A stretch of DNA of 64,000 bases from contig CAISZI010000048.1 of assembly GCA_903889905.1 (NCBI GenBank), positions 70,668 through 134,667 on the forward strand, in the 5' to 3' direction. Positions 3,730 to 63,212 of the stretch are shown here, one piece after another. The translations under genes and the position numbers were made by a program. Position 1 is the first letter of the stretch. Each line of letters starts with the position of its first letter. The notes under the pieces were generated by a model. It was not told the origin of the DNA. It ran no database searches and worked only from the letters and a program-made list of their open reading frames with translations. This DNA is from Candidatus Wirthbacteria bacterium (GTDB lineage Bacteria > Patescibacteriota > CG2-30-54-11).

Positions 3730-3799
3730 AATTTAACCTGCAACCACCCGCCAGTTTGCCACGTTTAAGCTTTCGAGGCAACTTGTTTGACTAAAAAAT

Positions 3800-3848
3800 C
3801 GGTATAAAAAAGCATCATTCCCGCAGAAACGCTTCAAGGGAATGATGC
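3800..3848 (-). terminator. putative Rho-independent terminator downstream of tRNA-Val on the minus strand
   Basis: Perfect 11-bp stem gcatcattccc/gggaatgatgc (3812-3822 and 3838-3848) with a 15-nt loop. On the minus strand it is followed by TTTTTTATACCGATTTTTT. Confidence 0.45.
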
Positions 3849-3900
3849 ACCGCTTATTTCTTTTGCCTACTTTTCTTTTTGAAAGAAAAGTAGAACTCTG

Positions 3901-3979
3901 TGGTGGGCGGTATAGGACTCGAACCTATGACCTTCTGCACGTCAAGCAGACGCTCTAACCAACTGAGCTAACCGCCCCC
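3901..3979 (-). tRNA. tRNA-Val (anticodon GAC), CCA encoded
   Basis: Reverse complement reads GGGGGCGGTTAGCTCAGTTGGTTAGAGCG-TCTGC-TTGACGT-GCAGA-AGGTCATAGGTTCGAGTCCTATACCGCCCACCA. It has a 7-bp acceptor stem, GTTCGAGTC T-loop, and anticodon loop TTGACGT. Confidence 0.85.
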
Positions 3980-4221
3980 AATGCACCGTCTTTTTATACC
4001 CTAAACCCCCCTATTTGACAAGCCTGCTCAAAAGTTGTTATTTAAGTACGAACTTCTTACCCATGCACCAACTTGTCCCACTGCGGGACGGAGAAGAGAT
4101 GCCCATACCCACCCGACACCAGCCAATCCTGCCAACGCCAAGCAAGAGCAAGTCATCTGAAATCGCCAGTAACTACTAGCGCAAATTCATCAAAACAGTC
4201 AGCACTCCCGCCAGCGTTGCC

Positions 4222-35142: not shown

Positions 35143-38100
35143 TCAAACATCGAGATCCAAAAAAGCACGATGTTTCAGCTCCGCACCAAGCCTGGCGAGA
35201 CTGTCGGCGCAGGCAATCCGGTCGCGGGTCACGAGCTGGAACAACTCATTCACCAGACTTTCTCGATGGGCAGCAATGGTTTGTAACGATGCTGGTTCAC
35301 GCAGAGACAGTCGCCACATAAGAGCTCTCAATGACGCCAGTCCTTTTGGCCAAAATTGCCGTGATTGCTTTGACGTGAACAAACTTCCGCTATCAGTCAA
35401 AACTGGAAAAGTCTGTCTCACTTTAGCCCATTTGATTTGCGCTTCAATGGTGGCGGTGCTGGCGGCGTCAACGGCAGATGGGGCAATCCGGAAAAATCTG
35501 ACAAGGTCGCGAACCAATTCGTCCTCGCGTTTTATCAGCACCCGTTCCCGCTGTCGTTCCTGCCGCAACCAAGCGTCGACCTCCCCGGCGGAACGAGAGG
35601 ACCATTCGGGATTAAGCAGACATTCGCGCAAATGCTCAAGTTTGCCATCCTGCGGCACCGTGATCAGCAAACTTTTGGCTGCACGGGTAAGGGCGACGTA
35701 GGTGACCCGGCGTTCTTCTTCGGTATCCGCAGCGCTTAGCGCATCAACACTGTCAGCAAGATTTAACAGCACCACATATTTGAATTCACGGCCTTTGGTG
35801 GCATGAATCGTACTCAAAGTGACTTCATCCTCGCTCTCCGCCGCTAAAGATGCTGCGGGTCCGGTGGCGACATGGGTAGAACGAATCAGTTCAAGCAAGG
35901 CCTCCGCCGTTGGCACCGCTTGCGCCACAGTGGCCATCACCTCCAGCACCATGACGTCGGATGCCGTGTCAATATCGTGTCGACTGCTGGCATTGTTTTG
36001 AAAAAACTGCTTTAACTCAAACACATCCACAAGCTGCCTGACAAGCTCACCGGCATGACTGATGCCAGCCTTGGACTCCGACACATTGACAAGTTGTTTG
36101 GCCAAAGTCGCCAGGCTGCGTTGCTTCCACTTTTCCAGTGATGGCCTCCCACACAGGGCCACAAAACTTTCCCGGTCAACTACCTCACGGATCAGTTCAC
36201 TGCCCAAATAACGGTTGGGCTGACGCAGCAGACGTTGCCAGTCATCTGCTGTGGCCAAATCCGGGTCGACCACCACCTGCAGATACGCCCCAAGTAGTTT
36301 GCCCGGCGCAGAACAAAACAGCCGTCGCAAATTCACCGGCGTATGCGCCACCTGCAATTGGTCAAAAATAACAGCCAGTGGAAACTGCAATTCATGGTAG
36401 CGAAACAGCACCGCAAAATCACGCCACCTGGACTGAGAATTCTGTTTTTGTTTCCGAATCCAGTCAGCGGCTGCTTTGGCCTGATCAAAAAGACTGGCGT
36501 GTTTGGACACATCAAAATCTCCAGGTTGCGCCTGTTTTTTGGGTTGAATATCTTTGGCCACGCGTCGTTGATTGTGTTCAATCAGCCAGCGTGAATGCCA
36601 GACCAGATTTTTGGAGGAACGATAGTTGGTCGAAAGTGTGAACTCACGACTACCGGGATAATTCACCGGGAAATCGAGGATATGCGCGATATTGGCCCCA
36701 CGCCAGCCATAAATCATCTGGTCGTCGTCACCCACAATAAACAGATTGTTCTGCGGCAGCCCCAAAACATGCATAAACAGCAGTTGCGACTTGTTCAAAT
36801 CCTGGAATTCATCCACCAGTACATACCGGAAACGCTGCTGGAGCTCCCGACGCAAGCTGGCATCATTGAGCAGTGCCTGCAAACTCAGGTAAATCATATC
36901 GTCAAAAGTGAGCACACGTCGCTCGCTTTGCAGTGCACAAAACCGTTCAAACAGTGGCTGCAGGAGATAAACCCCCTCTTCAAATTCGACAATGGCGCGA
37001 GCATCCAATGGGATTAGTTCGGTTTTGACTTGCTGGATACGGGTCAAAAGCAGATCGGCCGCCTCAGCCAGATGAACCGGCGCAACGTGACAAGCCTCCC
37101 GTACCACTTGCCTGGCGAGCTGCATTGGTTCATGCGTAGCCGTTTCTTCGTCATAAGTCCAGTGCAGATGGTCACGAATGATTTCGTACCCCAAAGCATG
37201 AAACGTACGGATCACCACGCCATCGGATTTGAGTGAGCCGGCAATGCGGACGCCTTTGGCCGCCAGTCGTTCACGCATTTCCCGGGCCGCTTTTTTGTTA
37301 AACGCCAGGGCCAGGATATGGTTGGCTGCAATGCCCTGATTTTGCAGATAAACGATGCGGTTGGTCAAGGTTTTGGTTTTGCCGGCGCCGGCGGGAGCGA
37401 GGACGCGGATCGGTCCATCCATGGGGGTAATTGCGGCTTTCTGGCTGCTGTCGAGCTCACGATCGAGCGGAATAAGGGGAATTTGTGCGGAGGGCAAATG
37501 CCGGCGCAAGATTCGGTCAACACACGAACGTACATTGGAGCGAATTTCCGATGCCCCAAAACGCAGCGTGACATAGCCACTGCGCCGGAATTCTTCTTCG
37601 CGCCATTGGTCACGATTGGAGGCATGTGCCTCCCGGTGATCGCACTCCACGACCACTGGCGATGGTTCCATGTCCAGCACAAAATCCGCACAAAACCGCC
37701 CCAGCTGCACCTGTCGCCGGTATGGAAGTTGGCGGGCGTCGAACTCGGTTTGCAGCTGTTGTTCCAGTGGCGTTTGCAACGGCGCCGTGGTGAGTGCTTT
37801 GTCAATAAAGTGCCAGTTTAAGTTGCTCCAGTAGAGTAATTGCCCGAATTGCTCCAGGGCAAGTTGTTCCAAAATAGTGCCTGTATCCTGATGCAATAAT
37901 GTTCCCAACGCTTTGCTTTCGTCATGCCAAGCAGAAACCGTCAAAGTGTCAAAAAAGGACACCGGAATATTTCTTTGCCGCGCCGGTATGATCACCTGGT
38001 TAACCAGTTTGGACGCCACCTTGGCCAGTTTATCCACGTCAAGGTCGCTCATCATCACCACGTGTTTACAGTGCTTCAGGTTAATGGCAACCCAGGGCTC

Positions 38101-38262
38101 GGCCAGGGCAACAAAGTGAACCGCCTTTTTACCCAAGATCGCTTGCAGTTTTTCGCCAAAAGCGCGTGCATCGACCGACGGGCAGTGGCTCAGATTGAGT
38201 CCAATGCCTTTGAACTGGAAGTGCTCGAGGCGATCAAGGTAAGGAGAAAAGTTGATCATCAA
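35143..38262 (-). CDS. multidomain SF1 helicase: unknown N-terminal domain plus DUF559 (Vsr-like PD-(D/E)xK endonuclease) plus UvrD/REP helicase plus C-terminal domain
   Basis: 1039 aa. DUF559 block FCADFVLD…VVVECDHREAHASNRDQWREEEFRRSGYVTLRF. UvrD motifs: Q-motif, Walker A APAGAGKTKT, motif II VLVDEFQDLN, YRSS, TIHATKGREF, TRAAKSL. Confidence 0.65.
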   Translation of the reverse strand: MMINFSPYLDRLEHFQFKGIGLNLSHCPSVDARAFGEKLQAILGKKAVHFVALAEPWVAINLKHCKHVVMMSDLDVDKLAKVASKLVNQVIIPARQRNIPVSFFDTLTVSAWHDESKALGTLLHQDTGTILEQLALEQFGQLLYWSNLNWHFIDKALTTAPLQTPLEQQLQTEFDARQLPYRRQVQLGRFCADFVLDMEPSPVVVECDHREAHASNRDQWREEEFRRSGYVTLRFGASEIRSNVRSCVDRILRRHLPSAQIPLIPLDRELDSSQKAAITPMDGPIRVLAPAGAGKTKTLTNRIVYLQNQGIAANHILALAFNKKAAREMRERLAAKGVRIAGSLKSDGVVIRTFHALGYEIIRDHLHWTYDEETATHEPMQLARQVVREACHVAPVHLAEAADLLLTRIQQVKTELIPLDARAIVEFEEGVYLLQPLFERFCALQSERRVLTFDDMIYLSLQALLNDASLRRELQQRFRYVLVDEFQDLNKSQLLFMHVLGLPQNNLFIVGDDDQMIYGWRGANIAHILDFPVNYPGSREFTLSTNYRSSKNLVWHSRWLIEHNQRRVAKDIQPKKQAQPGDFDVSKHASLFDQAKAAADWIRKQKQNSQSRWRDFAVLFRYHELQFPLAVIFDQLQVAHTPVNLRRLFCSAPGKLLGAYLQVVVDPDLATADDWQRLLRQPNRYLGSELIREVVDRESFVALCGRPSLEKWKQRSLATLAKQLVNVSESKAGISHAGELVRQLVDVFELKQFFQNNASSRHDIDTASDVMVLEVMATVAQAVPTAEALLELIRSTHVATGPAASLAAESEDEVTLSTIHATKGREFKYVVLLNLADSVDALSAADTEEERRVTYVALTRAAKSLLITVPQDGKLEHLRECLLNPEWSSRSAGEVDAWLRQERQRERVLIKREDELVRDLVRFFRIAPSAVDAASTATIEAQIKWAKVRQTFPVLTDSGSLFTSKQSRQFWPKGLASLRALMWRLSLREPASLQTIAAHRESLVNELFQLVTRDRIACADSLARLGAELKHRAFLDLDV

Positions 38263-50206: not shown

Positions 50207-53200
50207 CTAAAACACACTCTTCCCATCCCCATAATACCCATCAAACACATGCGAGAAGATCGCCCCGCACTTCTCTTCGTAGAGTTTCTTGTCATAGATC
50301 GCCGGCAAGTGTTCGAGCGAGTCTTTAATTGCAACCTCAATTGATGCCCTGGCAAACTCTTTGGCTCTCCAATCAAGCACCAGAAGGTCTTTGAGCTTCT
50401 GAAGGAGCTCACGTGCTACCTTTTTGACATCTCCCTGCTCCTGCTTGTTGAGTTTTGGGTCTGGCTTGGTCAGGAGGTCAAAGATAGCCAGTTCTTCCTC
50501 GTCACTTAGCCCTTCCCTGACTGCTCTTTTTTCTTCCTCTTCCAGATCCGCGGCAAAGGTGACCAAGTCCTGGTAGATCTCCTCCAATGAATGGCTCCCC
50601 GCGTTGTATTCGGCGACCATGTCTTTGAATTTCTTCACCAAATCGATCCGGGTACGGTTCATCTCGAATAGATGATTCACTTTGCCTTCGAGCAGCTTCT
50701 GCAAGAGGTCAATGGCATGGCGTCTGCGGCCTTCCTCGAACTGCTTCGCGAGCTTGTCAAAGTCAATTTTGCTTAGATCCATGGGTTGGGGGGATGTAAT
50801 CGAATACCCTGTTGTCCCGATCGTGTCATCGAGAAGGCCATCTACCTTGCGGACGATGCTGGTGATATCGACATCCGGTCGACGGGATTGGATGTTCTCG
50901 GCAATGGTCAGATACAGCTTGACCCGGTCATAGTAGGCAGCTACCCTGCCATCTGGTAGAACAGCTTTATAGAGCTGGTAGCACCCCTGCGTCATCTCCA
51001 GATAGTCTTTGCGGGTCTGCTCTGAGCTCATCAGGGCTTCAGAGGCGTTGTTGACTAGTTTTAGAAGCTCAACACGCTCCTTCCCAAGCATCTCTGCCGC
51101 TTGGATGCCGAGCTTGGCACAGAATGTGTTCAGTTTATCGAATCGATCTTCCAATTCCGCCAGAATCTCGTCTTTTTCCTTGATCGGGGTATCCTCTCCA
51201 TCTCCTCCCTGGTCGGCACCATAGATTGCCAGAGCCTTCTGAAGATTCCTAAAGACACCGATGTAATCGACAATGATACCATTGGGTTTGGTCTTGAAGA
51301 CACGATTGGCCCGGGCGATGGTCTGCATCAAGGTATGGTTCTTCATAGGACGGTCAAGGTAGACCGTCGAACAGGACTGGGCATCAAAGCCAGTCATCCA
51401 CATGGCGCAGACAAAGGCAATTCGAAGAGGATGATCCGCATCTTTGAATTCTTCCGCCAAGTCTTCCTTGTTCATGCGATCCCGGTGGGGTTTGGCATCA
51501 ATGCCATACTTTCGGGCATCATCGATCTCGTTCTGGCCTTGGGAGACCACCACAGCCATGTCAGTTGATTCCATGAAGTTGATTTTCGTCTCCAATGTTT
51601 CCAGCTTCTCGTCCCTGGCGTAGTAGAGCTCTTTGCGCAGGTCCTTGATCTTGGCATCCCAGTACTTCTTGACCTTTTCGAACATGCGATAGGTGGTCAG
51701 TTTATCAATGCTGACGATCATAGCCTTGCCAGGATAGCCCCGCCCGACAATGTGATCCACGATATCGCTCGCAATTCGCTCCAGACGTTCATCCCGGGTA
51801 ATCAAGTGGTATTGCTTGGAAAAATACCGCTGGAGCTTCAATTCTTGCTCATCGCTGAGCTCCTCTTGCTCCAGTAATTCATCCAGTTTGTCCGTTAGCT
51901 CTTGCTCATCGAGCTGGAGCTCTGGAATACGATTTTCATAAAACAGTGGCACGGTGGCATTGTCATCCACAGATTGCTTGAAGTTATAAATACTGACGTA
52001 ATCTCCAAATGTCTCCCGTGTCTTTTCCTCTCCGGCACCTTTGATCAAAGGGGTGCCTGTAAAGGCAATGAAACTGGCATGGGGAAGGCCTTCGCGCATG
52101 TTCATGGCCAAGGTGTCGTATTGGGAACGGTGGGCTTCGTCAGCCATGACAATGATGTCATTGCGGTCAGATAGGAGATCCCGATCACGGAACTTGTGGA
52201 TCAAGGTAAAGACATAACGGTGATCCTCGTGCAAAAGCTTCTTCAGATGTTCTGCCGACTCAGCATGAACCTGATCTTCTGGTTCGGAGACGGCTCCCGC
52301 TCCAGCAAAATTTTGATAAATTTGTTTATCAAGCTCTTTACGGTCAGTTAGCACCACAAATGTCCAGTTACCCGGCAGCTTCCTGAAGATCTTCTGGGAG
52401 TAAAAGATCATGGAGTAGCTCTTGCCGCTCCCCTGCGTATGCCAAAAGACGCCGGCGGCACCCTGGCCCTTGGGTTTGGCTTTGAATACCTCGATGGCTT
52501 GATTAACACCCAAAAACTGATGATTCTTGGCGACAATCTTGGCGATGCCACCGCGAACTTCTACAAACAGGGTAAAATTCTCAATCAAATCCAATAGTCT
52601 CGTCTTGTCACAAGTTCCACGGATCATGGCTTCCAGGGATATCTGAGGCTTCTCGTCTTCCTTCTCTACCTTTTTCCACTGGCTGAAATGCTCCCAGGTG
52701 GCGCTGACGCTACCCATGCGGCTATCCGTACCATTGGTGAGGATGATCATGGCGTTATACCAAAACAGCTGCGGGATGGTGTCCTTGTAATCCCGGATAT
52801 TGTCATCGAAGGCTTCCTTGACTGAATGGCTGGCGGATTTGTTCTCAATAAGCACCAAAGGGATGCCATTCACATACCCGATCAGGTCCGTGCGACGGGT
52901 ATAGTACTTACCGGTGATCCAAAGCTGCGAAACCAACAAGAAGTCATTATCGTTGGGGTTATCCCAATCAATGACCCGCAGATTAACTGTTTGTTCTGTT
53001 CCTTGATCATCCTTGAAACTAACCTTGATGCCATCGTGGATGAGTGCGTAGACCTCTTGATTGGCCCTGGTTAGGCTTTTGGTACTGCGATCGAGGGTAA
53101 GTTGGGCTATGGCATCATTGAGGACTTGGGAAGGAACATCGGGGTTAAGTTTTGTCAGAGCTTCCCGAAGGCGCGGCAAGAGCAGAACATCAGCTCGGAT

Positions 53201-53326
53201 TTGGCGCCCAAGGATACTGGTTGGGCCGGGGATTTCGTCAAAACAATCGACATGGGACCATTTCATGCCTTGGAAGAGGTCAATGCCAGACTTCTCAACG
53301 AGGGAATCTTCGGAGAATGGGTTCAT
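50207..53326 (-). CDS. hsdR: type I restriction enzyme R (endonuclease/translocase) subunit
   Basis: Start at MNPFSED (ATGA overlap with the upstream gene). N-terminal PD-(D/E)xK, SF2 helicase motifs (HTQGSGKSYSM Walker A, DEAH-like MADEAHRSQ), long C-terminal helical domain. 1039 aa from this start. Confidence 0.85.
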   Translation of the reverse strand: MNPFSEDSLVEKSGIDLFQGMKWSHVDCFDEIPGPTSILGRQIRADVLLLPRLREALTKLNPDVPSQVLNDAIAQLTLDRSTKSLTRANQEVYALIHDGIKVSFKDDQGTEQTVNLRVIDWDNPNDNDFLLVSQLWITGKYYTRRTDLIGYVNGIPLVLIENKSASHSVKEAFDDNIRDYKDTIPQLFWYNAMIILTNGTDSRMGSVSATWEHFSQWKKVEKEDEKPQISLEAMIRGTCDKTRLLDLIENFTLFVEVRGGIAKIVAKNHQFLGVNQAIEVFKAKPKGQGAAGVFWHTQGSGKSYSMIFYSQKIFRKLPGNWTFVVLTDRKELDKQIYQNFAGAGAVSEPEDQVHAESAEHLKKLLHEDHRYVFTLIHKFRDRDLLSDRNDIIVMADEAHRSQYDTLAMNMREGLPHASFIAFTGTPLIKGAGEEKTRETFGDYVSIYNFKQSVDDNATVPLFYENRIPELQLDEQELTDKLDELLEQEELSDEQELKLQRYFSKQYHLITRDERLERIASDIVDHIVGRGYPGKAMIVSIDKLTTYRMFEKVKKYWDAKIKDLRKELYYARDEKLETLETKINFMESTDMAVVVSQGQNEIDDARKYGIDAKPHRDRMNKEDLAEEFKDADHPLRIAFVCAMWMTGFDAQSCSTVYLDRPMKNHTLMQTIARANRVFKTKPNGIIVDYIGVFRNLQKALAIYGADQGGDGEDTPIKEKDEILAELEDRFDKLNTFCAKLGIQAAEMLGKERVELLKLVNNASEALMSSEQTRKDYLEMTQGCYQLYKAVLPDGRVAAYYDRVKLYLTIAENIQSRRPDVDITSIVRKVDGLLDDTIGTTGYSITSPQPMDLSKIDFDKLAKQFEEGRRRHAIDLLQKLLEGKVNHLFEMNRTRIDLVKKFKDMVAEYNAGSHSLEEIYQDLVTFAADLEEEEKRAVREGLSDEEELAIFDLLTKPDPKLNKQEQGDVKKVARELLQKLKDLLVLDWRAKEFARASIEVAIKDSLEHLPAIYDKKLYEEKCGAIFSHVFDGYYGDGKSVF

Positions 53327-53330
53327 GTGA
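53281..53330 (-). repeat. copy A of a ~48-bp direct repeat comprising the hsdR start codon and first 16 codons
   Basis: 53281-53330 is about 84% identical to 54541-54590. Copy A is the authentic hsdR 5' end (MNPFSEDSLVEKSGID). Confidence 0.6.
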
Positions 53331-54453
53331 TGAAACTCAGATAATTTTCTTGATTCACGACCAGAAACGATGCCTCGGGATAGGTGGATTGAAAAATGGC
53401 AGGCGCTTTGGCCGTAGCCTTGCCCCACTTGAACTCGTACGCATCGATCTTGCCACCCTGCTCCTCGATCCAGTCGATCTCCTGCTGGTCATAGGTACGC
53501 CAGAAATAATTGCTCGTAGAAAAATGCTTATAGGTCTGATATTTGATACGCTCGCTAACGAGAAAATTTTCCCAGAGCGCACCCTGGTCATTGCGGGAAT
53601 CGAGCGGATTAAACATACTGATGACGGCATTACGCACACCATTGTCGTAGAAAAAGTATTTGGGCTTGGAGGTTAGTTCTTTGCGCAGGTTGCGGCTGAA
53701 ACCGCCGAGACGGTAGAGGGTGAATGTTTGCTCCAGGAGCCACAGGTAACGCCCAACTGTTTTGACATCGACCTCGAGCTTTTGAGCCAGCTCGGTATAG
53801 GATACCTCTGCCCCGACCTGAAAGGCGACAAGCTTGAGCAGCTTGACCAGAGTCTGCGGGCTACGGACCTGCTCCAGGGCAAATATATCCTTCAGCAGAT
53901 AAGATCCGACTAGATCGAGCAGGTACTCCTCGCGGTCTGCGTCAGTTTTTTGATTGAGCACGTCCGGATAGTTGCCATAGATGAGGTAGGAGGTCAGGGA
54001 CGATTTAAGTTCATAGGGATTGAACCTGGCAGAGAGCTCCATCTGGGACAGAGGATAGAGGTGCAGCGTTTTTTTGCGACCGACCAGCGGCTCACCAACC
54101 TGCCGGGCCAATTCAAAGGAGGACGATCCGGTAGCGATTACCCGGATGGGTTTGATCTGGTCCACGATGATCTTGAGCCCCATGCCGATATAGGGAACCA
54201 TCTGTGCCTCGTCAATCACAATGAGTTCATACCCCGCACAGAATTCCCTGATCCGGTCAAAGTCCTGTGAACCCAACACTTCCCGTACCTGAATATTGTC
54301 TCCAGACACGAGCAGATATTTCCATTTCGTGGTACTCAAGTACCGCTCGATCAGCGTGGTCTTGCCAACCCGACGGGGACCAAAGAGCAAAAGTACTCGA
54401 TTTGGCTCAAGATAGGATTCCAGATCCTGACAGTAGCGGGGTACGTATTCCAT
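53323..54453 (-). CDS. AAA-family ATPase with C-terminal DUF4143 domain
   Basis: 376 aa. Walker A GPRRVGKTT, Walker B VIDEAQ, conserved DUF4143-type C-terminal region. Stop overlaps the hsdR ATG (ATGA). Confidence 0.7.
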   Translation of the reverse strand: MEYVPRYCQDLESYLEPNRVLLLFGPRRVGKTTLIERYLSTTKWKYLLVSGDNIQVREVLGSQDFDRIREFCAGYELIVIDEAQMVPYIGMGLKIIVDQIKPIRVIATGSSSFELARQVGEPLVGRKKTLHLYPLSQMELSARFNPYELKSSLTSYLIYGNYPDVLNQKTDADREEYLLDLVGSYLLKDIFALEQVRSPQTLVKLLKLVAFQVGAEVSYTELAQKLEVDVKTVGRYLWLLEQTFTLYRLGGFSRNLRKELTSKPKYFFYDNGVRNAVISMFNPLDSRNDQGALWENFLVSERIKYQTYKHFSTSNYFWRTYDQQEIDWIEEQGGKIDAYEFKWGKATAKAPAIFQSTYPEASFLVVNQENYLSFIT

Positions 54454-54489
54454 ATTTTTAGCTCAATTTAAGGATTCGTGTTCCTCAAA

Positions 54490-54518
54490 ATTATACCAAA
54501 ACGTGGATTTAGCGTCAA
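54490..54518 (-). promoter_or_regulatory. sigma70-type promoter TTGACG-N17-TATAAT driving the DUF4143 ATPase gene
   Basis: Minus-strand GTTGACGctaaatccacgttttggTATAATttt. The -10 lies ~37 nt upstream of the ATG at 54453. Confidence 0.45.
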
Positions 54519-54540
54519 CTTACTTAGTATTCAGTCAAGG

Positions 54541-54590
54541 AAATGCCGAATTGTTCGACGAGGTAATCTTCGGAGAATTGGTTCATCGTG
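54541..54590 (-). repeat. copy B of the hsdR 5'-end repeat (remnant start MNQFSEDYLVEQFGIS then stop)
   Basis: Minus strand reads ATGAACCAATTCTCCGAAGATTACCTCGTCGAACAATTCGGCATTTCCTTGACTGAATACTAA. This mirrors the hsdR N-terminus. Its ATG overlaps the toxin stop as ATGA, as at the true hsdR junction. Confidence 0.6.
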
Positions 54591-54957
54591 GATACACGCC
54601 TGTTGCTAAAGTCTTCAGAAAATCATCAATTCGTTGCTGAGACTCGCATTCCTGCTGGCCATGCATATAAATCTCGATGAAAACAATTTTTGCAGCGATC
54701 ACCCCAAAGGCAAACACCAGTCTCATCTTGCTTGAACCTTTGAGGCTGCGGACCATGAGGCGGGTCTTGATAATCAATAACTGTCTGGCCGTATCACGAT
54801 GGAGAATATCGTACCGATTATTGTGGTCAAAATCGACACCAACGATAAATTTACGGAAATTATCCAGATCCTGCGTCAGCGAGGCGCATTTTTTGGATAA
54901 TTTTTTCAGATCACGATCAAAAGCCGGCAGTGACTCGAACTCAAATCTCGTCGTCAT
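54583..54957 (-). CDS. RelE/ParE-superfamily toxin (Panacea-associated toxin, PanT)
   Basis: 124 aa. FxFxxxFxRDLKKLSKK N-terminus and …KMRLVFAF…IEIYMHGQQ C-terminal region typical of RelE/ParE/HigB. 17-nt overlap with the upstream antitoxin gene. Confidence 0.5.
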   Translation of the reverse strand: MTTRFEFESLPAFDRDLKKLSKKCASLTQDLDNFRKFIVGVDFDHNNRYDILHRDTARQLLIIKTRLMVRSLKGSSKMRLVFAFGVIAAKIVFIEIYMHGQQECESQQRIDDFLKTLATGVYPR

Positions 54958-55684
54958 ACTGCCTCACCGAGTAGGGATCATTGCGATAGAAAACACTTTC
55001 GTAGGAAATTTCCTCGCCGTCGTCGTGCGCCAGCCAGGGGACATCGCCATGCGAGTAGTCACTCAATTCCTTCGCCGATTTGTCTGCAAGTTGGGTCAGC
55101 ACACGATCAATCAGATCGAGCTCACGACCACTCAGTTTGGTCAAGTCAGCCACAGCGCGAGGCAGGAATTTGCGCTGGTCAAACATAAAATATTTGCTTT
55201 TGACTTCCTCCATCTCACCGTCCTGCTTCATTTGCTCAATCACCTTGATAAACTCTTTTGGGGTGGGACCATGAAGATTTTTGATATAGGTGAGGCCCAT
55301 GAGCTGTTCTTCGTATTTTTCGTAGTAGTCAAAATCGATGAAGTACAGCAATTTGTACAAAACTGTGAGACCCACGTTGGGTTTGGCGCCCACCTTGCCC
55401 AGGATATAGAGCAGGACCTGTTTGAATTTGTCCAGATGCTGCTGGGGGATATCGATGCGCATGGTCGAAGGAACGCTGGCAGGCGAAGTAGCGGCTGCCA
55501 GCGAAAAAATCTGCTCCAGTTTTTCACGTTCGGCGAGGGTCAGCGGACGCTTGCCTTGTTCAATTTTGACCAAAGTCGGACGGGAGACACCGAGCCGCGT
55601 GGCCAATTCTTGCTGCGACATGTGATATTGCTGGCGTAGTGAATGGATTTCGATGGTGGTTGGGGTAGTCATTGGAGTATCCAC
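54941..55684 (-). CDS. XRE-HTH plus Panacea (DUF4065, SocA-like) domain antitoxin
   Basis: 247 aa. HTH LRQQYHMSQQELATRLGVSRPTLVKIEQGKR, then a DUF4065-type domain (VLYKLLYFIDFDYYEKYEEQLMGLTYIKNLHGP). Confidence 0.6.
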   Translation of the reverse strand: MDTPMTTPTTIEIHSLRQQYHMSQQELATRLGVSRPTLVKIEQGKRPLTLAEREKLEQIFSLAAATSPASVPSTMRIDIPQQHLDKFKQVLLYILGKVGAKPNVGLTVLYKLLYFIDFDYYEKYEEQLMGLTYIKNLHGPTPKEFIKVIEQMKQDGEMEEVKSKYFMFDQRKFLPRAVADLTKLSGRELDLIDRVLTQLADKSAKELSDYSHGDVPWLAHDDGEEISYESVFYRNDPYSVRQYDDEI

Positions 55685-55761: not shown

Positions 55762-56901
55762 TTACAATAATTTTACAGAGACCTCTCCACTCATCAATCT
55801 TGGCAATAACAAATTCCTCGTTATTCTAAAATTTTGGCTCTGCAAGTGAAGCTTCTGAATCAAGTCAAACATTGGCCTGACAAGTTTTGAAAATCGATCC
55901 AGACAAATAACCGGAGGTTGCGAGAGCAAGTATTGGTTGAAGCAACTTTCCTGCACGCGTTGGCGTCCAGACGCCCCCGTCATGCTCTTTATTGCATGTT
56001 TTCGAAATTCGTCACTACGAGCCAATAAATATACATACTCAGGTGTAAGTGAATGTGATCGCATAACAATATATTCTGTCGATCCAAAAGCCACCGCTTT
56101 CTCGTCAGGCAGAAATTGCACAAAACCCGTTTTACCATTTTCCAGACAGGGTGTTATCCTCGCAAGTAGTGTGTCTCTATTTTGAAATTTAGCACCGCTA
56201 TTGCCTGTTCGAGATTCAACATCGGTGATTATTATTGAATCCGTTGAAAGACATCCCATTGGGACAAACGCCTTTTCTCCATCACGGGGAACAGATACTC
56301 TTGGGTTAAAATCAACACATTCAACCACTTTCTTCACCTCCCACCCCTCCGGCACCATCCCCAATTCCGTCCCCGAATCCACCATTTTGACCTTCTCATG
56401 CCCCGGGAACCGGAACTCCACAAACCACTCCCGATAGAGCCGCCTCGCCATTTCTTCCAGGATCTGGATGCGGCGGGTGTTGTTTTCGATTAGGTCGTCG
56501 TAAGCGGAAAGAATGGAGGCGATTTTCTTTTGAACATGCAATACTGGAACATCGATCTCAATCGTCGACAAATGATTTCGATTTAATGTTGGTACTCCTG
56601 CGCCTGCGTTGAAACGAGAAAAATCTAATCCAATCAATTTAAAATATACATATCTAGGGTCATTGCCCTTGAAATCCTTAACCCAAAGAGACGTATTATG
56701 GGGCCAGTACGGATCTTTAACATATTGAACCGTTCCTAACGATCCGCTGCGTCCAATTACAACGCCAGGGGCATCCGCTTTAAATTCATGATGATACCCG
56801 ATTATCGAAGTGGATCCGACCACTGGATAAATACCATCATTCATATTGATTCTTGTAAGATCGAAACCCCTTTGTAGAGTAATGAAATCATCAAGTCTCA
56901 T
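55762..56901 (-). CDS. hsdS: type I restriction-modification specificity subunit (two TRDs)
   Basis: 379 aa. Two target-recognition domains separated by conserved helical repeats (…LEEMARRLYREWFVEFRFPGHE…, C-terminal …NLLLPRLMSGEV). Confidence 0.8.
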   Translation of the reverse strand: MRLDDFITLQRGFDLTRINMNDGIYPVVGSTSIIGYHHEFKADAPGVVIGRSGSLGTVQYVKDPYWPHNTSLWVKDFKGNDPRYVYFKLIGLDFSRFNAGAGVPTLNRNHLSTIEIDVPVLHVQKKIASILSAYDDLIENNTRRIQILEEMARRLYREWFVEFRFPGHEKVKMVDSGTELGMVPEGWEVKKVVECVDFNPRVSVPRDGEKAFVPMGCLSTDSIIITDVESRTGNSGAKFQNRDTLLARITPCLENGKTGFVQFLPDEKAVAFGSTEYIVMRSHSLTPEYVYLLARSDEFRKHAIKSMTGASGRQRVQESCFNQYLLSQPPVICLDRFSKLVRPMFDLIQKLHLQSQNFRITRNLLLPRLMSGEVSVKLL

Positions 56902-57706
56902 CCGGATTCTCCATTTTCTTTAACTTTTCACCCTCAATTCTCTTCCCCGCTTTTTGGACACTATCGGGCGTCGGCAGCTGTTCGGGCATGGTGCCGCCTA
57001 GTTCTTTGATCGTCTCCCGCACCTTTTTGCCGACTTGCAGGTGGGTCAGATTGGCTTTGTCCTGACCTTTGATGCCTTCTCTCCTGAGCTTGGCTTCTGC
57101 CTGCGTCGCCCGGAATAAGTTAGCGGCCAGCTCTTCACTGCCCATGTGGTCGAGGATTTGCTGGTTTTTTTTGAGTTGTTTGCGTGCATGAATGTCTTTT
57201 TGGGACAACCCGCCGTATAGCCCCATGTAGCCGTAATTTTGAAACGTCCCAAAACTGACCACACCGGCATCGTCAGCAGCCTTGGCCAGTTTTTTGTTGT
57301 GCGTTTTCATTTCTTCGCGTAGCAAAACCCGTTTGTGATCCTCGATCATCTGATCCGCCACTTCTTGCCGGTGCGTCTGGATGGCAAAGTAAGTTTGCCC
57401 CAGCGCGACGATTTCTTTGGACGGATCGGCATTCTGAACGATCAGATAGCAGGCATAGCGAGACAACCGGATATCTTCGACCTGCCGCCTGGCTCCTGAG
57501 CCAATTTCGACCATATCGTGCACATCCTCGAAATGGTCTGCAATTGCTTGACCACTGTTTTGGCAGGCAATCTTGGCTTTATCAATAACTGGCACGAAGA
57601 AACGATACTCGGAATACCCCAAAATTTTGGAAAGTTCCCTCGCTGACCAGTATTCGGACTGATATTCATTGACCTTCTTGATCGCATCGAACTGGTTGCT
57701 GGTCAT
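56891..57706 (-). CDS. dinD: DNA-damage-inducible protein D (DinD; BRO-N/KilA-N-like)
   Basis: 271 aa. N-terminus …EYWSARELSKILGYSEYRFFVPVIDKAKIAC…SRYACYLIVQNADPSKEIVALGQTYFAIQTHRQE matches DinD. Sits between hsdM and hsdS with 11-nt and 4-nt junctions. Confidence 0.65.
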   Translation of the reverse strand: MTSNQFDAIKKVNEYQSEYWSARELSKILGYSEYRFFVPVIDKAKIACQNSGQAIADHFEDVHDMVEIGSGARRQVEDIRLSRYACYLIVQNADPSKEIVALGQTYFAIQTHRQEVADQMIEDHKRVLLREEMKTHNKKLAKAADDAGVVSFGTFQNYGYMGLYGGLSQKDIHARKQLKKNQQILDHMGSEELAANLFRATQAEAKLRREGIKGQDKANLTHLQVGKKVRETIKELGGTMPEQLPTPDSVQKAGKRIEGEKLKKMENPDET

Positions 57707-57709
57707 CTA

Positions 57710-59266
57710 TTACTCCTTGTGATTAGTAAAAATTAGCGCAACGTTCTTACTGATGGTTTCTTCCAGCCCATTCGCCTCAGTAGTCAGAAGCTCGAATTCA
57801 TCGTTAAGAGTCCTCAACTTGGCCTTGAAATCCTCATCACTGACTACTTCGCCATCGGCAATTCCAACATATAGCCCTGGATTTAGGGACCAACCTTGCG
57901 CCACGATTTCCGTAGCCGTCGCTACTTTGCAAAGCCCCTTCACATCCCGATATTTGCCGTCCGGAAAATTGGCTTTAAGCAAAGCATTATCAGAGTATTC
58001 CGGCACTTTCCCCCGATACATCCGGACAATGTCTGACAAAAACTGCAAATGTTCTTCCCCAAACTCCCGATGCGCTCGATCTACCTGCACGAAGTGATGC
58101 CGGGCATCGAGAAATAGAACATTGTCTTTGCGGTCCTGTGGCTTGCCCTTGTCCAAAAACCACAAAGTACAAGGCAACGTCACCGTATCAAAAAAATTGG
58201 GAGATATAGCTACCATCACATCTACATGCCCAGCTTCGATTAACTTCTGGCGGATCGCCATCTCACTATTGCGCGCATCGCTGGCAGAATTGGCCATGAC
58301 GAACCCGGCACGCCCAGTCTGATTGAGCGGGCTATAGAACTGCTGTATCCATAGGTAATTGGCATTGGACGTGGACGGCATCCCAAATGGAAACCGTTGC
58401 CGATCATCCTTCATCCGGTCCTTGTCCGCACCTTCATTATTGAATGGCGGATTAGCCATCACGAAGTCGCAGCGCCCGACGGCATGATGAGGATCTTCAT
58501 AGTAGCTGTTGCCGGTACGAATATCGCCATTGAGCCCATGGATGGCCAGGTTCATCTTAGCAAGGTTGGTATTGGAGGTCGTCAGCTCCTGCCCAATGAT
58601 CGAAAGCTCCGAGATAGGATTGTGCTGATGCCGTGCAACGAAGTCCGCACTTTGGACAAACATGCCACCCGATCCGCAAGCCGGGTCATAAATCACCCCA
58701 TGGTAGGGCTCGATAATCTCGACAATCAGCTTGACCAAAGATGTCGGGGTAAAGAACTCCCCACCCTTTTCCCCAGACTTCTTGTGAAACTTGCCCAGGA
58801 AGTACTCATAGATCTTGCCAAAGACATCGCCTTCAACCTCAGTCATCTCCGTGCTGTTAAACGTTTTGAGCAAGTTTAGTAGCACCTTCTTGTCTATCCG
58901 GGCATATCCGCGAGGTAAAACGCCCTTCAAATCAGTATTTTCTTTCTCTATCTCCTCCATCGCGTGGTCTACTGCCTTGGCAACATCATCACCATCCGTG
59001 AGGTTGATTAAATAAGAATAACGGGCCTCGGGAGTCAAATAGATCGCCCGACGCGCCAAAAAGTCCGCCTTGCCCACGGTTCGACGGCTGGAAGTGGCTT
59101 GCGAGCTTAGTTCCTGCTCAATCCGGGTAAATTTGACGTCTGCATATTTCAAAAAAATAAGACCCAAAACCGGCATCGTGTATTCCGATGGTTTCAGGTC
59201 CGCATTTCCCCACAATTGCTCAGCCGATTCCCACAAAGTGGCTTCGAGTTGTTTGTTATAGGTCAT
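57710..59266 (-). CDS. hsdM: type I restriction-modification N6-adenine DNA methyltransferase subunit
   Basis: 518 aa. N-terminal HsdM_N, SAM motif [10 protein letters not shown], catalytic NPPF. Confidence 0.85.
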
Positions 59267-59416: not shown

Positions 59417-59881
59417 ATGAACACCCGCACCACCCAACTCGCCCGCACCCAGCTTGACGCCACGCTCAAGCCTCTAACCAAACTTGCCTCGACTTCCCGC
59501 CCACCCAAAGGCTGGATCCGCGCCATCCGCAATGCCCTGGGCATGAGTGGCGAGCAATTGGCGCGTCGTCTCGGCCTGACCAAACAGCGCATCGGCCGCA
59601 TCGAACAAGACGAAGCTGGGGATGGCATCACCTTCAAAACCATGCGCCATGTCGCCGAGGCGCTGGATTGTCATTTTGTCTATGCACTCATCCCCCGCAC
59701 CAGCCTCGAACAGTCCGTCCGAGACCAGGCTGCCAAAGTTGCTGCCAAACGACTGGCGCAAGTAAGCCACTCAATGATGCTCGAGAACCAACAGCTAACT
59801 GATGCAAATCAAACAAAAGCCTTGCAGTCCGAGGTCGAACGACTTATTGCCTCTTTGCCACGGACACTCTGGGATGACTAA
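59417..59881 (+). CDS. mobile mystery protein A (HTH-XRE family, TIGR02612-like)
   Basis: 154 aa. PKGWIRAIRNALGMSGEQLARRLGLTKQRIGRIEQDE…ITFKTMRHVAEALDCHFVYALIPRTSLE matches the mobile-mystery-protein-A pattern. Confidence 0.6.
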   Translation: MNTRTTQLARTQLDATLKPLTKLASTSRPPKGWIRAIRNALGMSGEQLARRLGLTKQRIGRIEQDEAGDGITFKTMRHVAEALDCHFVYALIPRTSLEQSVRDQAAKVAAKRLAQVSHSMMLENQQLTDANQTKALQSEVERLIASLPRTLWDD

Positions 59882-60458
59882 ATCAAATTCCTTCGGCACC
59901 ACCCCGATATCGCCGGATGAGCTGGACGGACTCAAACTGACCCATATCACTACAACGGAACAGCTCAATCGCTTCGAACAGGACAACATCACTGAGGCCA
60001 TGGACTGGCTCTCACGCCGTAAACCAACCAAGATATTGAACGAATCCTTTCTCAAATCCCTGCACCAGCATATGTTTGGGCTGGTGTGGAAATGGGCCGG
60101 AAAATTCCGCGCCACCGACAAAAATATTGGCATTCCGTGGCAATACATCGCGGTAGAAGTCCGCAAATTATGTGACGATACGCAATTTCAGATCGACCAT
60201 CAATCCTACTCACCCGATGAGATCGCTGCGCGCTTTCATCACCGCCTGGTACAGATCCATCCATTTCCAAACGGTAATGGCCGCCATAGCCGACTGATAA
60301 CAGACATTCTGCTGCAAAATGTATTACAGAAGCCGCCTTTCACCTGGGGCGGTGCAGCACTGCGTGACGCCGACGATCCTCGGCGTCAATATATTGGTGC
60401 GCTGCAAATGGCGGACAAGGGAGACATGGAAGCGCTGATGAAATTCGTGCGGTCCTGA
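59874..60458 (+). CDS. mobile mystery protein B (Fic-domain protein, TIGR02613-like)
   Basis: Start MTKSNS overlaps the mmpA stop by 8 nt. Fic motif HPFPNGNGRHSRL. ~194 aa. Confidence 0.65.
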   Translation: MTKSNSFGTTPISPDELDGLKLTHITTTEQLNRFEQDNITEAMDWLSRRKPTKILNESFLKSLHQHMFGLVWKWAGKFRATDKNIGIPWQYIAVEVRKLCDDTQFQIDHQSYSPDEIAARFHHRLVQIHPFPNGNGRHSRLITDILLQNVLQKPPFTWGGAALRDADDPRRQYIGALQMADKGDMEALMKFVRS

Positions 60459-60491
60459 GAAACAAGAAAAAACCATTTCCCGCGTTCTTTC

Positions 60492-61769
60492 CTATCTCTT
60501 GAGCATCATCATCACCAACCCAATCATCCTCTCCTTGTCCACCGGTTTGCTCTCGGCAATCAGCAGTGTCAGTGCGGTCAGGGCTTCGGGTGTAATCCGG
60601 GTCATGTCCAGCAGCCGCGCCCGTAGCAATAACCAGACAAAGGCAAACGCACCCGAGCGCTTGTTGCCATCGAATTCGATGGAATCAAAATCAGGATTAT
60701 GCAATTTCTCCCATAGCCCCAAAAACTAGATCGTGCCGGATTTGTATTGGTAGATGACCAGGCCTTGTTGGGGGGTATTCTTTGGCATGGTTACTTCTTC
60801 TCGGCTTTAGTGATTGGAGTCTTGAGGTATTTCTGGGCGACTCGGTCAAAATCCGACTCAAATGATCTATCCTGATCGATTCTGAACTCGTCGTATTCCT
60901 TCTCGGCTAGTTGCTTGGCGACGTCCGATGAAATCTTGCCGGAATCGGCCAATATCTCATAATCATTGAATTGCAAAAATGCGTCCAGCCTGATAGCCCA
61001 ATCTTTCATGGTCATGGTCTTGTGGCGTTCGGCCTGGGATTCGGCGTAATACGGAAACATCGGTTTTGAGGATTTTTCCTTTGGGACTGTTCTTCCAAGT
61101 TGTCAGGCCCATGTGCGGCCTGGAACTACTCGCACGTGAGGCGACGATCTCGGCGGCAGTGTGACCAGTGATGGCCCAGTGCAATTTGTTCTGGACGGTT
61201 TGGTAGAATTGGTGGGTGATGTCGGCCTTGGGGTCATAATCAATACTGCATTGCGCGTAGATATCGGTGATTTTTTGATAAAACCGCCGCTCCGACGCCC
61301 GGATTTCACGAATTCGTTCGAGTAACTGATCAAAGTAATCCTTGCCAAAGAAGTTGCCGTTTTTGAGACGCTCGTCGTCAAGGACAAAGCCCTTGATGAT
61401 AAATTCCCGAAGCGTTGTGGTTGCCCAGATGCGAAATTGAGTCGCTTTTTGGGAATTGACACGATAACCGACGGAAATGATGGCGTCGAGGTTGTAAAAA
61501 TTGGGTTCCCTCTCAACCATTCTCTCGCCTTCTTTTTGAACTATTCGAATTTTTCGAATAGTTGCCGCTTCATCTAGCTCGCCGCTCGCAAAAATCTCCT
61601 GGAGATGGTAGTTCACCGTATTAACTTCCACATCAAACAATTCAGCCATGGCTTTTTGGGTCAGCCAGACAGTTTCGTTTTGAACCAACACCTCCATTTT
61701 CACGTCGCCGTCGGGTGTCGTGTAGAGAAGAAATTGTGAAGATTGCGTCACGAGTTCTTTTTTTGCCAT
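60492..61769 (-). pseudogene. rhuM: disrupted rhuM-doc (RhuM/Fic-DOC) fusion gene carrying at least two frame changes
   Basis: The 61769-60963 frame encodes the RhuM N-terminal ~230 aa (…NLDAIISVGYRVNSQKATQFRIWATTTL…). The RhuM C-terminus (KDWAIRLDAFLQFNDYEILADSGKISSDVAKQLAEKEYDEF) continues in another frame (61060-60791). A Doc/Fic core remnant (IEFDGNKRSGAFAFVWLLL…) lies in a third frame (60722-60492). Confidence 0.5.
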
Positions 61770-61794
61770 AGGTCCCTCTGGTTATTTTATCCGC

Positions 61795-61851
61795 ACTGCC
61801 GTCATTATAAACTTCCGCACTTACCCCAGCAAATGTAAACAAACCGCTCGG
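61795..61851 (-). promoter_or_regulatory. rhuM promoter (TTGCTG-N17-TATAAT); second copy of the module found upstream of hsdM
   Basis: Minus strand CGGTTTGTTTACATTTGCTGGGGTAAGTGCGGAAGTTTATAATGACGGCAGTG. The -10 is ~35 nt upstream of the rhuM ATG at 61769. Confidence 0.5.
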
Positions 61852-62120
61852 CTAAAGAATCGGGCAAAAAAACACCCAACCAGGGTGGTTCAAAATGACT
61901 TCTTCGGCAATAGCCACAAGCCGATTCGATCTAAGCTCACGGTCCAAGACGAGCTCCGCGAGTCGAATGGCTGGGCCACTTGGTTTAGAACCAGAAATGA
62001 GACATTTGGGACAGTATAAAAAAGGGTGTCTCAATTTGTGAGTAAGCAAGCAAGTAAGTTGTCTTATCGGAAGTTTAATGGTATTTTATTAGTATCGCCA
62101 AACTCCAATTGAGGTAGTCT

Positions 62121-63212
62121 TTGTATACTCCCAAATTCACCATTACCACATCTATTGCCCAGGCATTGATGCGGATAGAAGCACACAAACAAGCGATAAG
62201 CGACCTGCCTATCACGCCGGATGTCCTGCTCCATCTGCGGGAAACCGCGCGTCTTGCAACGACTCATTATTCGACTGCGATTGAAGGTAATGACCTGGAA
62301 GAAGTAGAGGTTAAAAAAGTTATCCAGGGATCATCCAACATTCAGGGAAAAGAACGTGACACCGCAGAAGTCAAAGGCTATTATGCCGCACTCCAGAGAG
62401 TAGAACGACTCGCTGGAAAAAAATACCCTACCGAAAAGGATATCCAGACTATCCATGCACTCGTGATCGGTGGTGGCAGAAACCAGGTGAAACCTACACT
62501 CTATCGGACAGAACAGAACGTCATCAAAGACAGTCGATCCGGGACAATAGTCTACCTGCCACCCGAGGAAAAAGACGTTCCCCAGCTTATGGAGGATCTT
62601 GTTCTCTGGATAAAAAGCAGTTTGTACGAGCAGATCCCTCTACCACTCCGTGCTGGCATCGCCCATTATCAGTACGTCACGATCCACCCCTATCTGGATG
62701 GTAATGGCAGAACCGCCCGCCTGCTCACTACACTCATCGCTCATCAAGGCGGATATGATTTAAAAGGTATCTTTTCTGTGGAGGAATACTATGTGCAGAG
62801 CCTCCAACAATACTACGATGCCCTCTCACTCGGACTTTCCCATAATTATTACTTCGGCAGGCATGAAGCAGATATCACTCCCTGGCTAGAATACTTCTGC
62901 GCTGGAATGGCGGAAAGCTTTGATAAAATTCATCGTCAGGCGCAGAAGGCTGCAAAGGCAGGGCAACAGGATTTCTCACCCATTCTCCGTGACTTGGATC
63001 CGAGGCAACGAAAAGTACTGAGTCTATTCGTTCACAGTACCAGGATCACGACACGAGAGATCGCCACTTGTCTGAATATTTCGACCCGCGCTGCCAGTGC
63101 ATGGTGTCAAAAATGGGTCAATGACGGATTCCTTCGGATCATGAATCCAGCCAAAAGGAATCGTTCGTATGCACTGGGAAAGCAGTACGAAAGTTTGGTT
63201 GTTTATAGCTGA
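62121..63212 (+). CDS. Fic-family protein (Fic/DOC adenylyltransferase-like with C-terminal wHTH)
   Basis: 363 aa. Fic motif HPYLDGNGRTARLL. N-terminal inhibitory-helix-like segment (…TAIEGN…). C-terminal winged-helix region. Confidence 0.75.
   Translation: MYTPKFTITTSIAQALMRIEAHKQAISDLPITPDVLLHLRETARLATTHYSTAIEGNDLEEVEVKKVIQGSSNIQGKERDTAEVKGYYAALQRVERLAGKKYPTEKDIQTIHALVIGGGRNQVKPTLYRTEQNVIKDSRSGTIVYLPPEEKDVPQLMEDLVLWIKSSLYEQIPLPLRAGIAHYQYVTIHPYLDGNGRTARLLTTLIAHQGGYDLKGIFSVEEYYVQSLQQYYDALSLGLSHNYYFGRHEADITPWLEYFCAGMAESFDKIHRQAQKAAKAGQQDFSPILRDLDPRQRKVLSLFVHSTRITTREIATCLNISTRAASAWCQKWVNDGFLRIMNPAKRNRSYALGKQYESLVVYS

Follow-up and report, generated by a model that had tools for sequence, protein, structure and literature searches.

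The window analysed here, a stretch of 64,000 nucleotides from Candidatus Wirthbacteria bacterium, carries a type I restriction-modification (RM) operon in which a gene for an AAA_14/DUF4143 ATPase stands directly upstream of hsdR. The 5' end of hsdR occurs twice, once at the start of the functional gene and once as a short remnant on the other side of the ATPase gene. Together with the limits of the segment between the two copies, this arrangement indicates that a cassette composed of a promoter and the ATPase gene probably entered hsdR and that the start of hsdR was duplicated in the process. Both genes are intact, and ATPase genes of this family flanked by long direct repeats were also found at unrelated loci. 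Coordinates refer to the 64-kb window, and the relevant genes are all encoded on the minus strand. The features that define the locus are given below.

50207-53326, minus strand: hsdR, intact, 1039 amino acids (Pfam HSDR_N, SWI2_SNF2 and T1RH-like_C; TIGR00348 above the cut-off)
53282-53326, minus strand: repeat copy A, the functional hsdR 5' end, ATG and 14 codons (MNPFSEDSLVEKSGI; repeat search)
53321-53326, minus strand: right junction, ATGAAC (window versus L006 sequence)
53321-54519, minus strand: inserted cassette as delimited by homology, 1,199 bp (blastn against positions 9935-11133 of contig L006)
53323-54453, minus strand: AAA_14 and DUF4143 (PD-(D/E)XK-like) ATPase, 376 amino acids, PDC-S01 (Pfam, PADLOC)
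54490-54518, minus strand: cassette promoter, TTGACG-N17-(TG)TATAAT (promoter scoring and conservation in the relative)
54520-54541, minus strand: 22-nt segment at the left junction, TCCTTGACTGAATACTAAGTAA, with a stop in each of the three frames (sequence reading)
54524-54586, minus strand: dead-end open reading frame (ORF) of 20 codons (MNQFSEDYLVEQFGISLTEY), ATG at 54586 and TAA at 54526-54524 (direct sequence reading)
54542-54586, minus strand: repeat copy B, the hsdR 5'-end remnant (repeat search)
54583-54957, minus strand: putative toxin partner of PanA, 124 amino acids (named from position alone)
54941-55684, minus strand: antitoxin with HTH (HTH_3) and SocA_Panacea (SocA-like) domains (Pfam)

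The duplication of the hsdR 5' end was evaluated against the surrounding sequence and against shuffled sequences. Copies A and B formed an ungapped direct repeat of 45 nt on the minus strand, with 37 of 45 positions identical (82%) and a spacing of 1260 nt, and this was the longest direct repeat between 50 and 60 kb (10 kb scanned). The pattern of its 29-nt core occurred just twice in the window, and no occurrence was expected according to 100 shuffles. When the 260 nt preceding the ATPase gene were compared with the hsdR start region, the best 45-mer had 37 identities, compared with 22.5±1.3 and a maximum of 28 for the shuffles (n=200). The two segments thus aligned better than chance, which was the check named beforehand in the initial annotation of this DNA; the duplication described there was real, whereas the figures of 48 bp and about 84% identity were generous. 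The homology started exactly at ATGA and was clear up to codon 15 (GGCATT, ending at 54542). Codon 17 (Leu) was also common to both copies, and the 4 nt on the 5' side of each ATG differed between them. With a 7-nt deletion allowed, a weak similarity may reach about 66 nt (TTCCTTGAC-TGAA versus TTCCAAGGCATGAA in hsdR). The 22-nt segment at 54520-54541 may accordingly be decayed hsdR sequence with this 7-nt deletion, or it may be the left edge of the cassette.

The relationship between the two copies was then placed within the HsdR family. The N-terminus of HsdR displayed a family-wide motif, [YF]SEDxLVEQPAIxLF, in the homologue alignment made in this analysis. Three HsdR genes of the family that were compared as DNA had only 25-29 of 45 positions in common with either window copy, and one of these three shared 11 of 15 residues with the window HsdR. 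Of the 10 degenerate positions with a common residue, 8 had the identical codon in the two window copies. Moreover, both copies had Gly-Ile at a place where 119 of 119 other HsdR homologues among the matches listed had [AST]-[ILVM]. A scan of the JGI metagenomes for FSEDxLVE[QK]xGI returned four matches, all of them chance occurrences in non-hsdR sequence, and no other hsdR. Because of the low identity to family DNA, the common codons, the shared Gly-Ile and the empty metagenome scan, copies A and B are, as judged from their sequences, mutually the closest known relatives at the nucleotide level. Eight substitutions separate them, which corresponds to a Jukes-Cantor (JC) distance of 0.20. The nonsynonymous (dN) and synonymous (dS) distances were 0.12 and 0.72, with a dN/dS of approximately 0.17 over 15 codons, too few to discriminate between models. 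In addition, substitutions specific to the remnant create a small hairpin at 54545-54559 (minus strand), GTCGAA-CAA-TTCGGC followed by ATTTCCTT, which was flagged by the terminator scan. This hairpin could serve to shield the PanA-toxin transcript from the promoter of the ATPase gene, and no enrichment of hairpin sites like it was seen in the region.

Several features mark the DNA between the copies as a discrete module. Its ATPase is closest to P0160 (87% amino acid identity), the product of a stand-alone gene that has a DHH-family gene on one side and an M20 peptidase gene on the other in the groundwater metagenome contigs L006-L011. Window positions 54519..53321 matched positions 9935-11133 of L006 in a single ungapped block of 1,199 bp with 82% identity (blastn). 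The limits of this homology were the -35 hexamer and the second nucleotide past the ATPase stop. Since the block starts at the -35 hexamer, the promoter belongs to the ATPase gene, and the earlier suggestion that promoter and ATPase together form an inserted module between the hsdR 5' copies was borne out. The promoter, also recognised in the initial annotation as TTGACG-N17-TATAAT, scored 11/12 with an extended -10 TG and was the top site in 9.6 kb. The promoter and 5' untranslated region were identical to those of the relative at 55 of 66 positions, despite a dS of approximately 1 for the gene, where dN/dS was 0.08. The C-terminus of the window ATPase (NYLSFIT, then the stop) was the native end of the family. 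No inverted repeats bracketing the cassette were found in the repeat search. No compositional contrast between cassette and operon was found either, the G+C content at third codon positions (GC3) being 0.63 and 0.61, respectively; hence composition is uninformative on the age or origin of the cassette.

The identities that had been assigned to the DUF4143 AAA-ATPase and to hsdR were supported by Pfam. Furthermore, the ATPase gave a full-length match to PADLOC PDC-S01 (PDLC04789, E 1.2e-147, residues 8-375). The Walker A and B motifs were invariant, and E325-I-D327...E340-F-K342 was present. The gene is therefore listed here under PDC-S01 as a candidate anti-phage gene. For hsdR, Pfam HSDR_N began at residue 4 of the protein starting at ATG-53326, which is the ATG next to the cassette.

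The right junction could be resolved to a few nucleotides. The window sequence ...ATCACATGAACCC corresponds to ...ATCACCTGAACGG in L006, where the native stop context of the ATPase is ACC TGA ACG. TGAAC is both this stop context and part of hsdR ATGAAC, that is, a microhomology of 5 nt. The ATGA stop/start overlaps that had been pointed out at both junctions exist, as does the 20-codon dead-end ORF directly after the toxin stop. Their interpretation as preserved translational couplings did not hold, however. ATGA lies inside the repeat, so that its preservation at both junctions is a consequence of the repeat and not an independent feature, and the ATGA between the ATPase gene and hsdR arose where TGA-AC of the native ATPase stop overlaps ATGAAC by microhomology. 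The insertion point itself had been placed at a junction between the toxin gene and hsdR; the position indicated here is some 45-66 nt within hsdR, the start of which would have been regenerated by the target duplication.

The junction between the toxin gene and the remnant was examined through the relatives of the PanA-toxin pair. The gene for the HTH and Panacea antitoxin is directly upstream of the 124-aa partner gene and overlaps it. The same pair was found in non-RM contexts in L001-L005 and L108-L109, and its nearest relatives (toxin 86% and 65% amino acid identity) adjoin Mur-ligase/LepA or GreA/AspRS genes. The pair is thus a mobile module itself, and no flanking repeats were found when they were looked for around it. 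Nucleotide homology to the non-RM locus L001 covered 55622-54616 with 78% identity and ended 33 nt before the stop of the window toxin. The last ~11 codons of the toxin (54615-54583) were non-homologous to its nearest relative, and this tail ends in the TGA of the remnant ATGA. Among 37 toxin homologues with lengths of 110-124 aa, all but one had 110-117 aa, so the window toxin with 124 aa exceeds nearly all of them by 7-11 residues. The native stop (TAG) seems to have been lost, possibly via a small indel. Because the non-homologous tail reads into the TGA of the remnant, the toxin-hsdR coupling junction is probably secondary and not the ancestral target of the insertion. An origin of the C-terminal extension as a relic of an ATPase 3' end, like the one that accompanies the third cas3 copy of L078 (see below), was also tried and was rejected, as the alignment was at the null level. 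With regard to the toxin assignment, the position next to a Panacea antitoxin supports a partner gene; the protein had no Pfam, NCBIfam or PADLOC match, and the source name 'RelE' carried by distant homologues was the only pointer to a toxin family.

The context of the ATPase outside the window was explored in 80 GTDB loci that encode its closest homologues (48-58% amino acid identity, many phyla; 8-kb neighbourhoods). According to tblastn, the window HsdR, HsdM, HsdS, PanA, toxin and Bro-N proteins had no match within 8 kb of the ATPase in any of the 80 loci. A conserved ATPase-hsdR pair was accordingly rejected. No RM linkage of the ATPase was found in L006, L110 and four plasmid loci, and viral contigs contained just three ATPase homologues. 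For the repeat survey, the 260 nt on the 5' side of the ATPase start were aligned with a region that began 12 nt before the ATPase stop and extended 110 nt past it. Strong locus-specific direct repeats, 26-110 nt in length with 80-98% identity, were obtained in 7 of the 74 testable GTDB loci, besides the window; flanking repeats were absent from the four plasmid loci, L006 and L110. For a strict count, L061 (a dispersed element resembling repetitive extragenic palindromes) and L072 (partly multi-copy) were dropped, which left 5 of 74, namely L014, L026, L040, L044 and L078. Control ORFs of at least 250 aa in the same loci scored as high in 4 of 338 cases (Fisher p=8e-4). Two of these four controls were a Bro-N gene (L014 14399-15232, 82-nt repeat), the protein of which belongs to the same family as PDC-S13 of the window, and a divergent AAA_14/DUF4143 ATPase gene (L073 12916-14250, 48-nt repeat); the comparison is thus one of 5-7 in 74 ATPase loci with 2-4 in 338 controls. 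Hence, the long-duplication scar may extend to other single-gene defence candidates.

The geometry of the flanking repeats was constant. The upstream copy lay 70-240 nt before the ATPase start, and the downstream copy began at the stop or within a few nucleotides of it. Downstream copies started with TGAAC in the window, TAATT in L026 and TGA..GAAC in L078, and those of L014 and L044 included the last ATPase codons. Neither a conserved end sequence nor a recombinase was found at the repeat-flanked loci, where the cassette edges and the repeat lengths varied. The duplicated targets were hsdR, cas3, a sigma-factor gene and intergenic terminators. The window arrangement is mirrored in L040, where the 3' end of a sigma-70 gene was duplicated: there it is the upstream copy that is intact, and the downstream copy has degenerated and is fused to the C-terminus of the ATPase. 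L078 is a metagenome-assembled genome (MAG) of Syntrophaceae (CAZLFA010000087.1, 640-2775) with a genuine cas3 gene (HD and helicase domains) at 2703-4919. The 5' end of cas3 occurred three times there: upstream of the DUF4143 ATPase gene, directly after the ATPase stop, and at the real cas3 start. Copies 2 and 3 were separated by an ORF6N gene, and immediately 5' of the real cas3 ATG lay a degenerate 3' end of an ATPase gene. This order fits a repeat-driven tandem duplication followed by replacement, and L078 is an independent replicate of the window architecture at another defence helicase-nuclease gene. Taken together, these results suggest that PDC-S01 genes repeatedly show the signature of insertion with long target duplication, including at cas3. 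This recurrence, suggested by the flanking sequences, comprises five to seven cases from MAGs without empty sites.

Two further observations were made in the surveyed loci. Subfamily-specific inverted or direct repeats surrounded the ATPase promoters in L014, L026, L040 and L044 (about 30-90 nt 5' of the ATPase start), L061 and L078, for example ATGGAGT/ACTCCAT flanking AAATTGACA and GGCCG-N13-CGGCC around the -10. These repeats look like operators, perhaps for autoregulation, and are absent from the ATPase subfamily of the window and L006. In L099 (1125-2311) and L101-L103 (5687-6927), which hold other members of this HsdR family, a DUF3800 gene and an uncharacterised gene of about 177 aa were located between hsdS and hsdR.

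The sequence of events that would best account for the window is an illegitimate, microhomology-associated insertion with long target duplication. A single-gene cassette of 1.2 kb, with a sigma-70-type promoter and the AAA_14/DUF4143 nuclease-ATPase, would have entered about 45-66 nt inside the hsdR coding region, and copies of the first ~15-22 hsdR codons would have been left on either side of it by duplication. Of these, the downstream copy would have been joined to the ATPase stop via TGAAC, in frame with the body of hsdR and functional. The upstream copy would have been severed and would then have drifted through eight substitutions, possibly a 7-nt deletion, and an early stop. Possible routes are staggered breaks that were then filled in, or template switching during replication, and the PD-(D/E)XK domain of the cassette may itself supply the DNA break. 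The timing is consistent with this, with a JC distance of 0.20 for the two copies and a cassette dS of approximately 1 to the stand-alone relative. The stop and start of the ATPase gene and hsdR overlap, and neither a terminator nor a Shine-Dalgarno sequence was found between them. For this reason, the cassette promoter most likely drives hsdR transcription, with translation by termination-reinitiation, and the practical result for the window would be that hsdR expression was probably rewired to the cassette promoter.

Several points weigh against the insertion of the cassette in hsdR. Neither an empty site nor a close hsdR relative was found in the searched collections, where the nearest HsdR had 55% amino acid identity, so that the direction of the event, insertion and not replacement, is inferred. 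The origin of the duplication in situ would follow from the same reading. About 90% of the ATPase loci had no flanking repeat. No hsdR 5' remnant was found upstream of the DUF3800 cassettes before hsdR in three other loci. The divergence of 18% between the copies is large for a scar that still keeps the ATG and the frame. At position 12, the remnant carries Gln, the family consensus, and the functional copy carries Lys (two nucleotide changes), which means that the functional gene has also changed. The dN/dS of the copies leans slightly, and not significantly, to two functional alleles. Finally, the left junction is poorly bounded, with 22 nt of uncertain origin.

Some of these points would be explained if the remnant were the stump of another hsdR allele or paralogue after the toxin gene, with ~16 codons left when a [promoter-ATPase-hsdR] block, either incoming or from next to the locus, replaced the rest. 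The replacement could have proceeded by one homologous and one illegitimate crossover or by a deletion between tandem systems, and the 82% identity would then be allelic divergence. Half of the changes between the copies are synonymous, the consensus Gln12 is kept in the remnant, and allelic substitution at RM loci is documented (Furuta et al., 2010; PMC2853133). We nevertheless regard this origin as unlikely. The ATPase was directly 5' of hsdR in none of the more than 80 other ATPase loci, so that a pre-formed block is without precedent; Gly-Ile is common to both copies and was in no other HsdR examined. Moreover, the right junction falls exactly on the 5-nt microhomology with the native ATPase stop context, as for a junction formed de novo, and the same flanking-duplication geometry recurs at unrelated targets. 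The order toxin-hsdR'-ATPase-hsdR could also result from tandem amplification of [promoter-ATPase-hsdR 5'], with the first ATPase copy later overwritten by the PanA-toxin module. L078 seems to have had such a history, since a degenerate ATPase 3' end precedes the real cas3 behind the ORF6N gene, and amplification via long flanking repeats has been proposed for RM genes (PMC2853133). In the window, however, the 29 nt 5' of the remnant ATG aligned with the ATPase 3' end with a score of 6.5 against a null of 6.2±1.0, the PanA-toxin module has no flanking repeats, and the ATPase gene would still have had to be inserted in front of hsdR in the first place. Such an amplification is thus improbable.

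Non-identical repeats would need no long time span if they were chimeric from the outset, that is, if a circular cassette with the hsdR 5' segment of another strain had recombined at the resident hsdR 5' end in a Campbell-type event. The repeats of L014 and L044, which include the cassette 3' end, are as expected for circular or concatemeric intermediates. However, the longest identical run between the two window copies was just 14 nt. A run of this length is far under the usual need of RecA-type recombination. The stand-alone relative carries no hsdR sequence and no recombinase is present, which makes this event very improbable. A resemblance by chance, in which an unrelated short ORF converged on the HsdR motif [YF]SEDxLVEQPAI or encodes a functional peptide, could draw on the strong conservation of the HsdR N-terminus. 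This was effectively refuted, because the identity of 37/45 exceeded both the 25-29/45 of true family members and the value of at most 28/45 in shuffles, the same codon was used at 8 of 10 degenerate positions, and the ORF ends after 20 codons. The insertion of the promoter-ATPase cassette with duplication of the hsdR start therefore remains the reading that we favour.

The surrounding operon contains a complete type I RM set, with hsdM, hsdS and hsdR intact on one strand (Pfam, TIGR00348). The remaining genes of this operon are listed below.

57710-59266, minus strand: hsdM (Pfam N6_Mtase and HsdM_N)
56891-57706, minus strand: Bro-N/DinD gene, PADLOC PDC-S13 (PADLOC E 4e-115, NCBIfam DinD E 1e-115)
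55762-56901, minus strand: hsdS (Pfam Methylase_S)

The Bro-N/DinD gene sits between hsdM and hsdS, 3 nt past the hsdM stop and with an 11-nt overlap with the hsdS start. Flanking repeats were looked for around it and none were found. In PADLOC, its protein also aligned to the N-terminal 266 of 717 positions of a type I specificity-subunit profile, so that Bro-N-HsdS fusions evidently exist. On the 5' side of hsdM, a Fic/DOC gene, a RhuM-family gene and a second Fic/DOC gene occupy 59802-63212, and the RM operon thus lies in a small defence/toxin island. No integrase or transposase was found in or near the insert and in the surrounding island (Pfam, neighbour genes). Elsewhere in the window, 35143-38262 (minus strand) encodes a UvrD-type helicase of 1039 aa with an N-terminal DUF559/REase_MTES_1575 endonuclease-like domain. 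Its length is equal to that of HsdR by coincidence, and the gene is unrelated to the cassette.

Genes nested in RM, BREX and CRISPR operons are now used to find immune systems, and the route by which such genes arrive is an open question there. The window locus keeps a readable scar of one such embedding event. PDC-S01 has been described as an ATPase fused to a PD-(D/E)XK domain and as the fourth most common defence candidate in prokaryotes. DUF4143 was classed as PD-(D/E)XK in 2012, and validation has been reported as pending for most PDC candidates. A speculative and rather doubtful reading is that PDC-S01 genes, and perhaps Bro-N/DinD and ORF6N genes, are autonomous selfish cassettes, which would insert themselves via their PD-(D/E)XK nuclease with long target duplications. 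Equally tentatively, such cassettes would prefer gene termini and place their right edge at the stop, their promoter would read into the downstream gene, and their repeats would allow amplification or excision. This life cycle is the one proposed by Kobayashi for RM systems. If true, it would provide a mechanistic origin for embedding in defence operons and raise doubt as to whether the fourth most common defence candidate is a defence gene. If the survey result scales, 'guilt by embedding' would be tied to the older long-target-duplication model, with the further suggestion that nuclease-bearing single genes promote their own spread.

Insertion with long target duplication was reportedly first described by Nobusato et al. 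in Gene in 2000. In this class, mobility genes are absent, and the RM genes lie between long direct repeats that vary in length and are specific to the locus; the events were shown by genome comparison for type I-IV systems, and it was suggested that double-strand breakage takes part and that the repeats permit amplification (Furuta, Abe and Kobayashi, 2010, Nucleic Acids Research; PMC2853133). Genes embedded in type I RM, BREX and DISARM operons have been described under 'guilt by embedding', the significance and origin of which 'remains to be explored' (Payne et al., 2024; 10.1101/2024.01.29.577857). The initial annotation had considered the mechanism of gene insertion within RM operons to be undescribed. 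That view was too broad, as both embedding in type I RM operons (PrrC; 10.1101/2024.01.29.577857) and insertion with long target duplication (PMC2853133) have been published. The molecular mechanism and the occurrence of this signature at PDC-S01 genes are still undescribed, and nothing on the mobility of DUF4143, COG1373 or PDC-S01 was present in the literature searched.

Integration of phages and integrative and conjugative elements into the termini of tRNA or protein genes (attL/attR) likewise duplicates a gene end and leaves one functional and one displaced copy. The window insert differs from these elements in that it has neither an integrase nor a conserved att core, its edges and repeat lengths vary between loci, and it is a single gene of 1.2 kb. 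With transposons, insertion sequences and integron cassettes it shares direct repeats at the flanks and a compact one-gene unit, whereas its duplication is 45+ bp instead of 2-15 bp and terminal inverted repeats, transposase, attC and integrase are absent. Integron cassettes usually lack a promoter of their own, and the window cassette has one.

The window agrees with the class of Furuta et al. in that the insert lies between direct repeats of more than 30 bp (45 nt in the window), which can extend into the termini of adjacent genes. A nuclease is encoded on the insert, the size of which is below 20 kb (1.2 kb), transposase and integrase are absent, the repeat occurs twice in 64 kb, and flanking repeats can drive amplification, as in L078. 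Unlike in that class, the cargo is a single PDC-S01 nuclease-ATPase without R and M homologues, so that the insert behaves like the class without being an RM insertion, and the target lies inside another defence gene (hsdR codons 1-15+). The repeats also have 82% identity compared with at least 89% in the tabulated cases, and the window has no empty-site genome. The window resembles the embedding of Payne et al. in that a same-strand gene lies between hsd genes, and PDC-S01 and PDC-S13, candidates that stem from that work, were both defined by embedding. PrrC in EcoprrI is functionally tied to its RM enzyme, whereas the window ATPase is associated with its RM genes by position. In contrast to that catalogue, the window keeps a physical insertion scar. 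The locus is thus a new member of two known kinds: defence operons with an embedded gene, and insertions with long target duplication.

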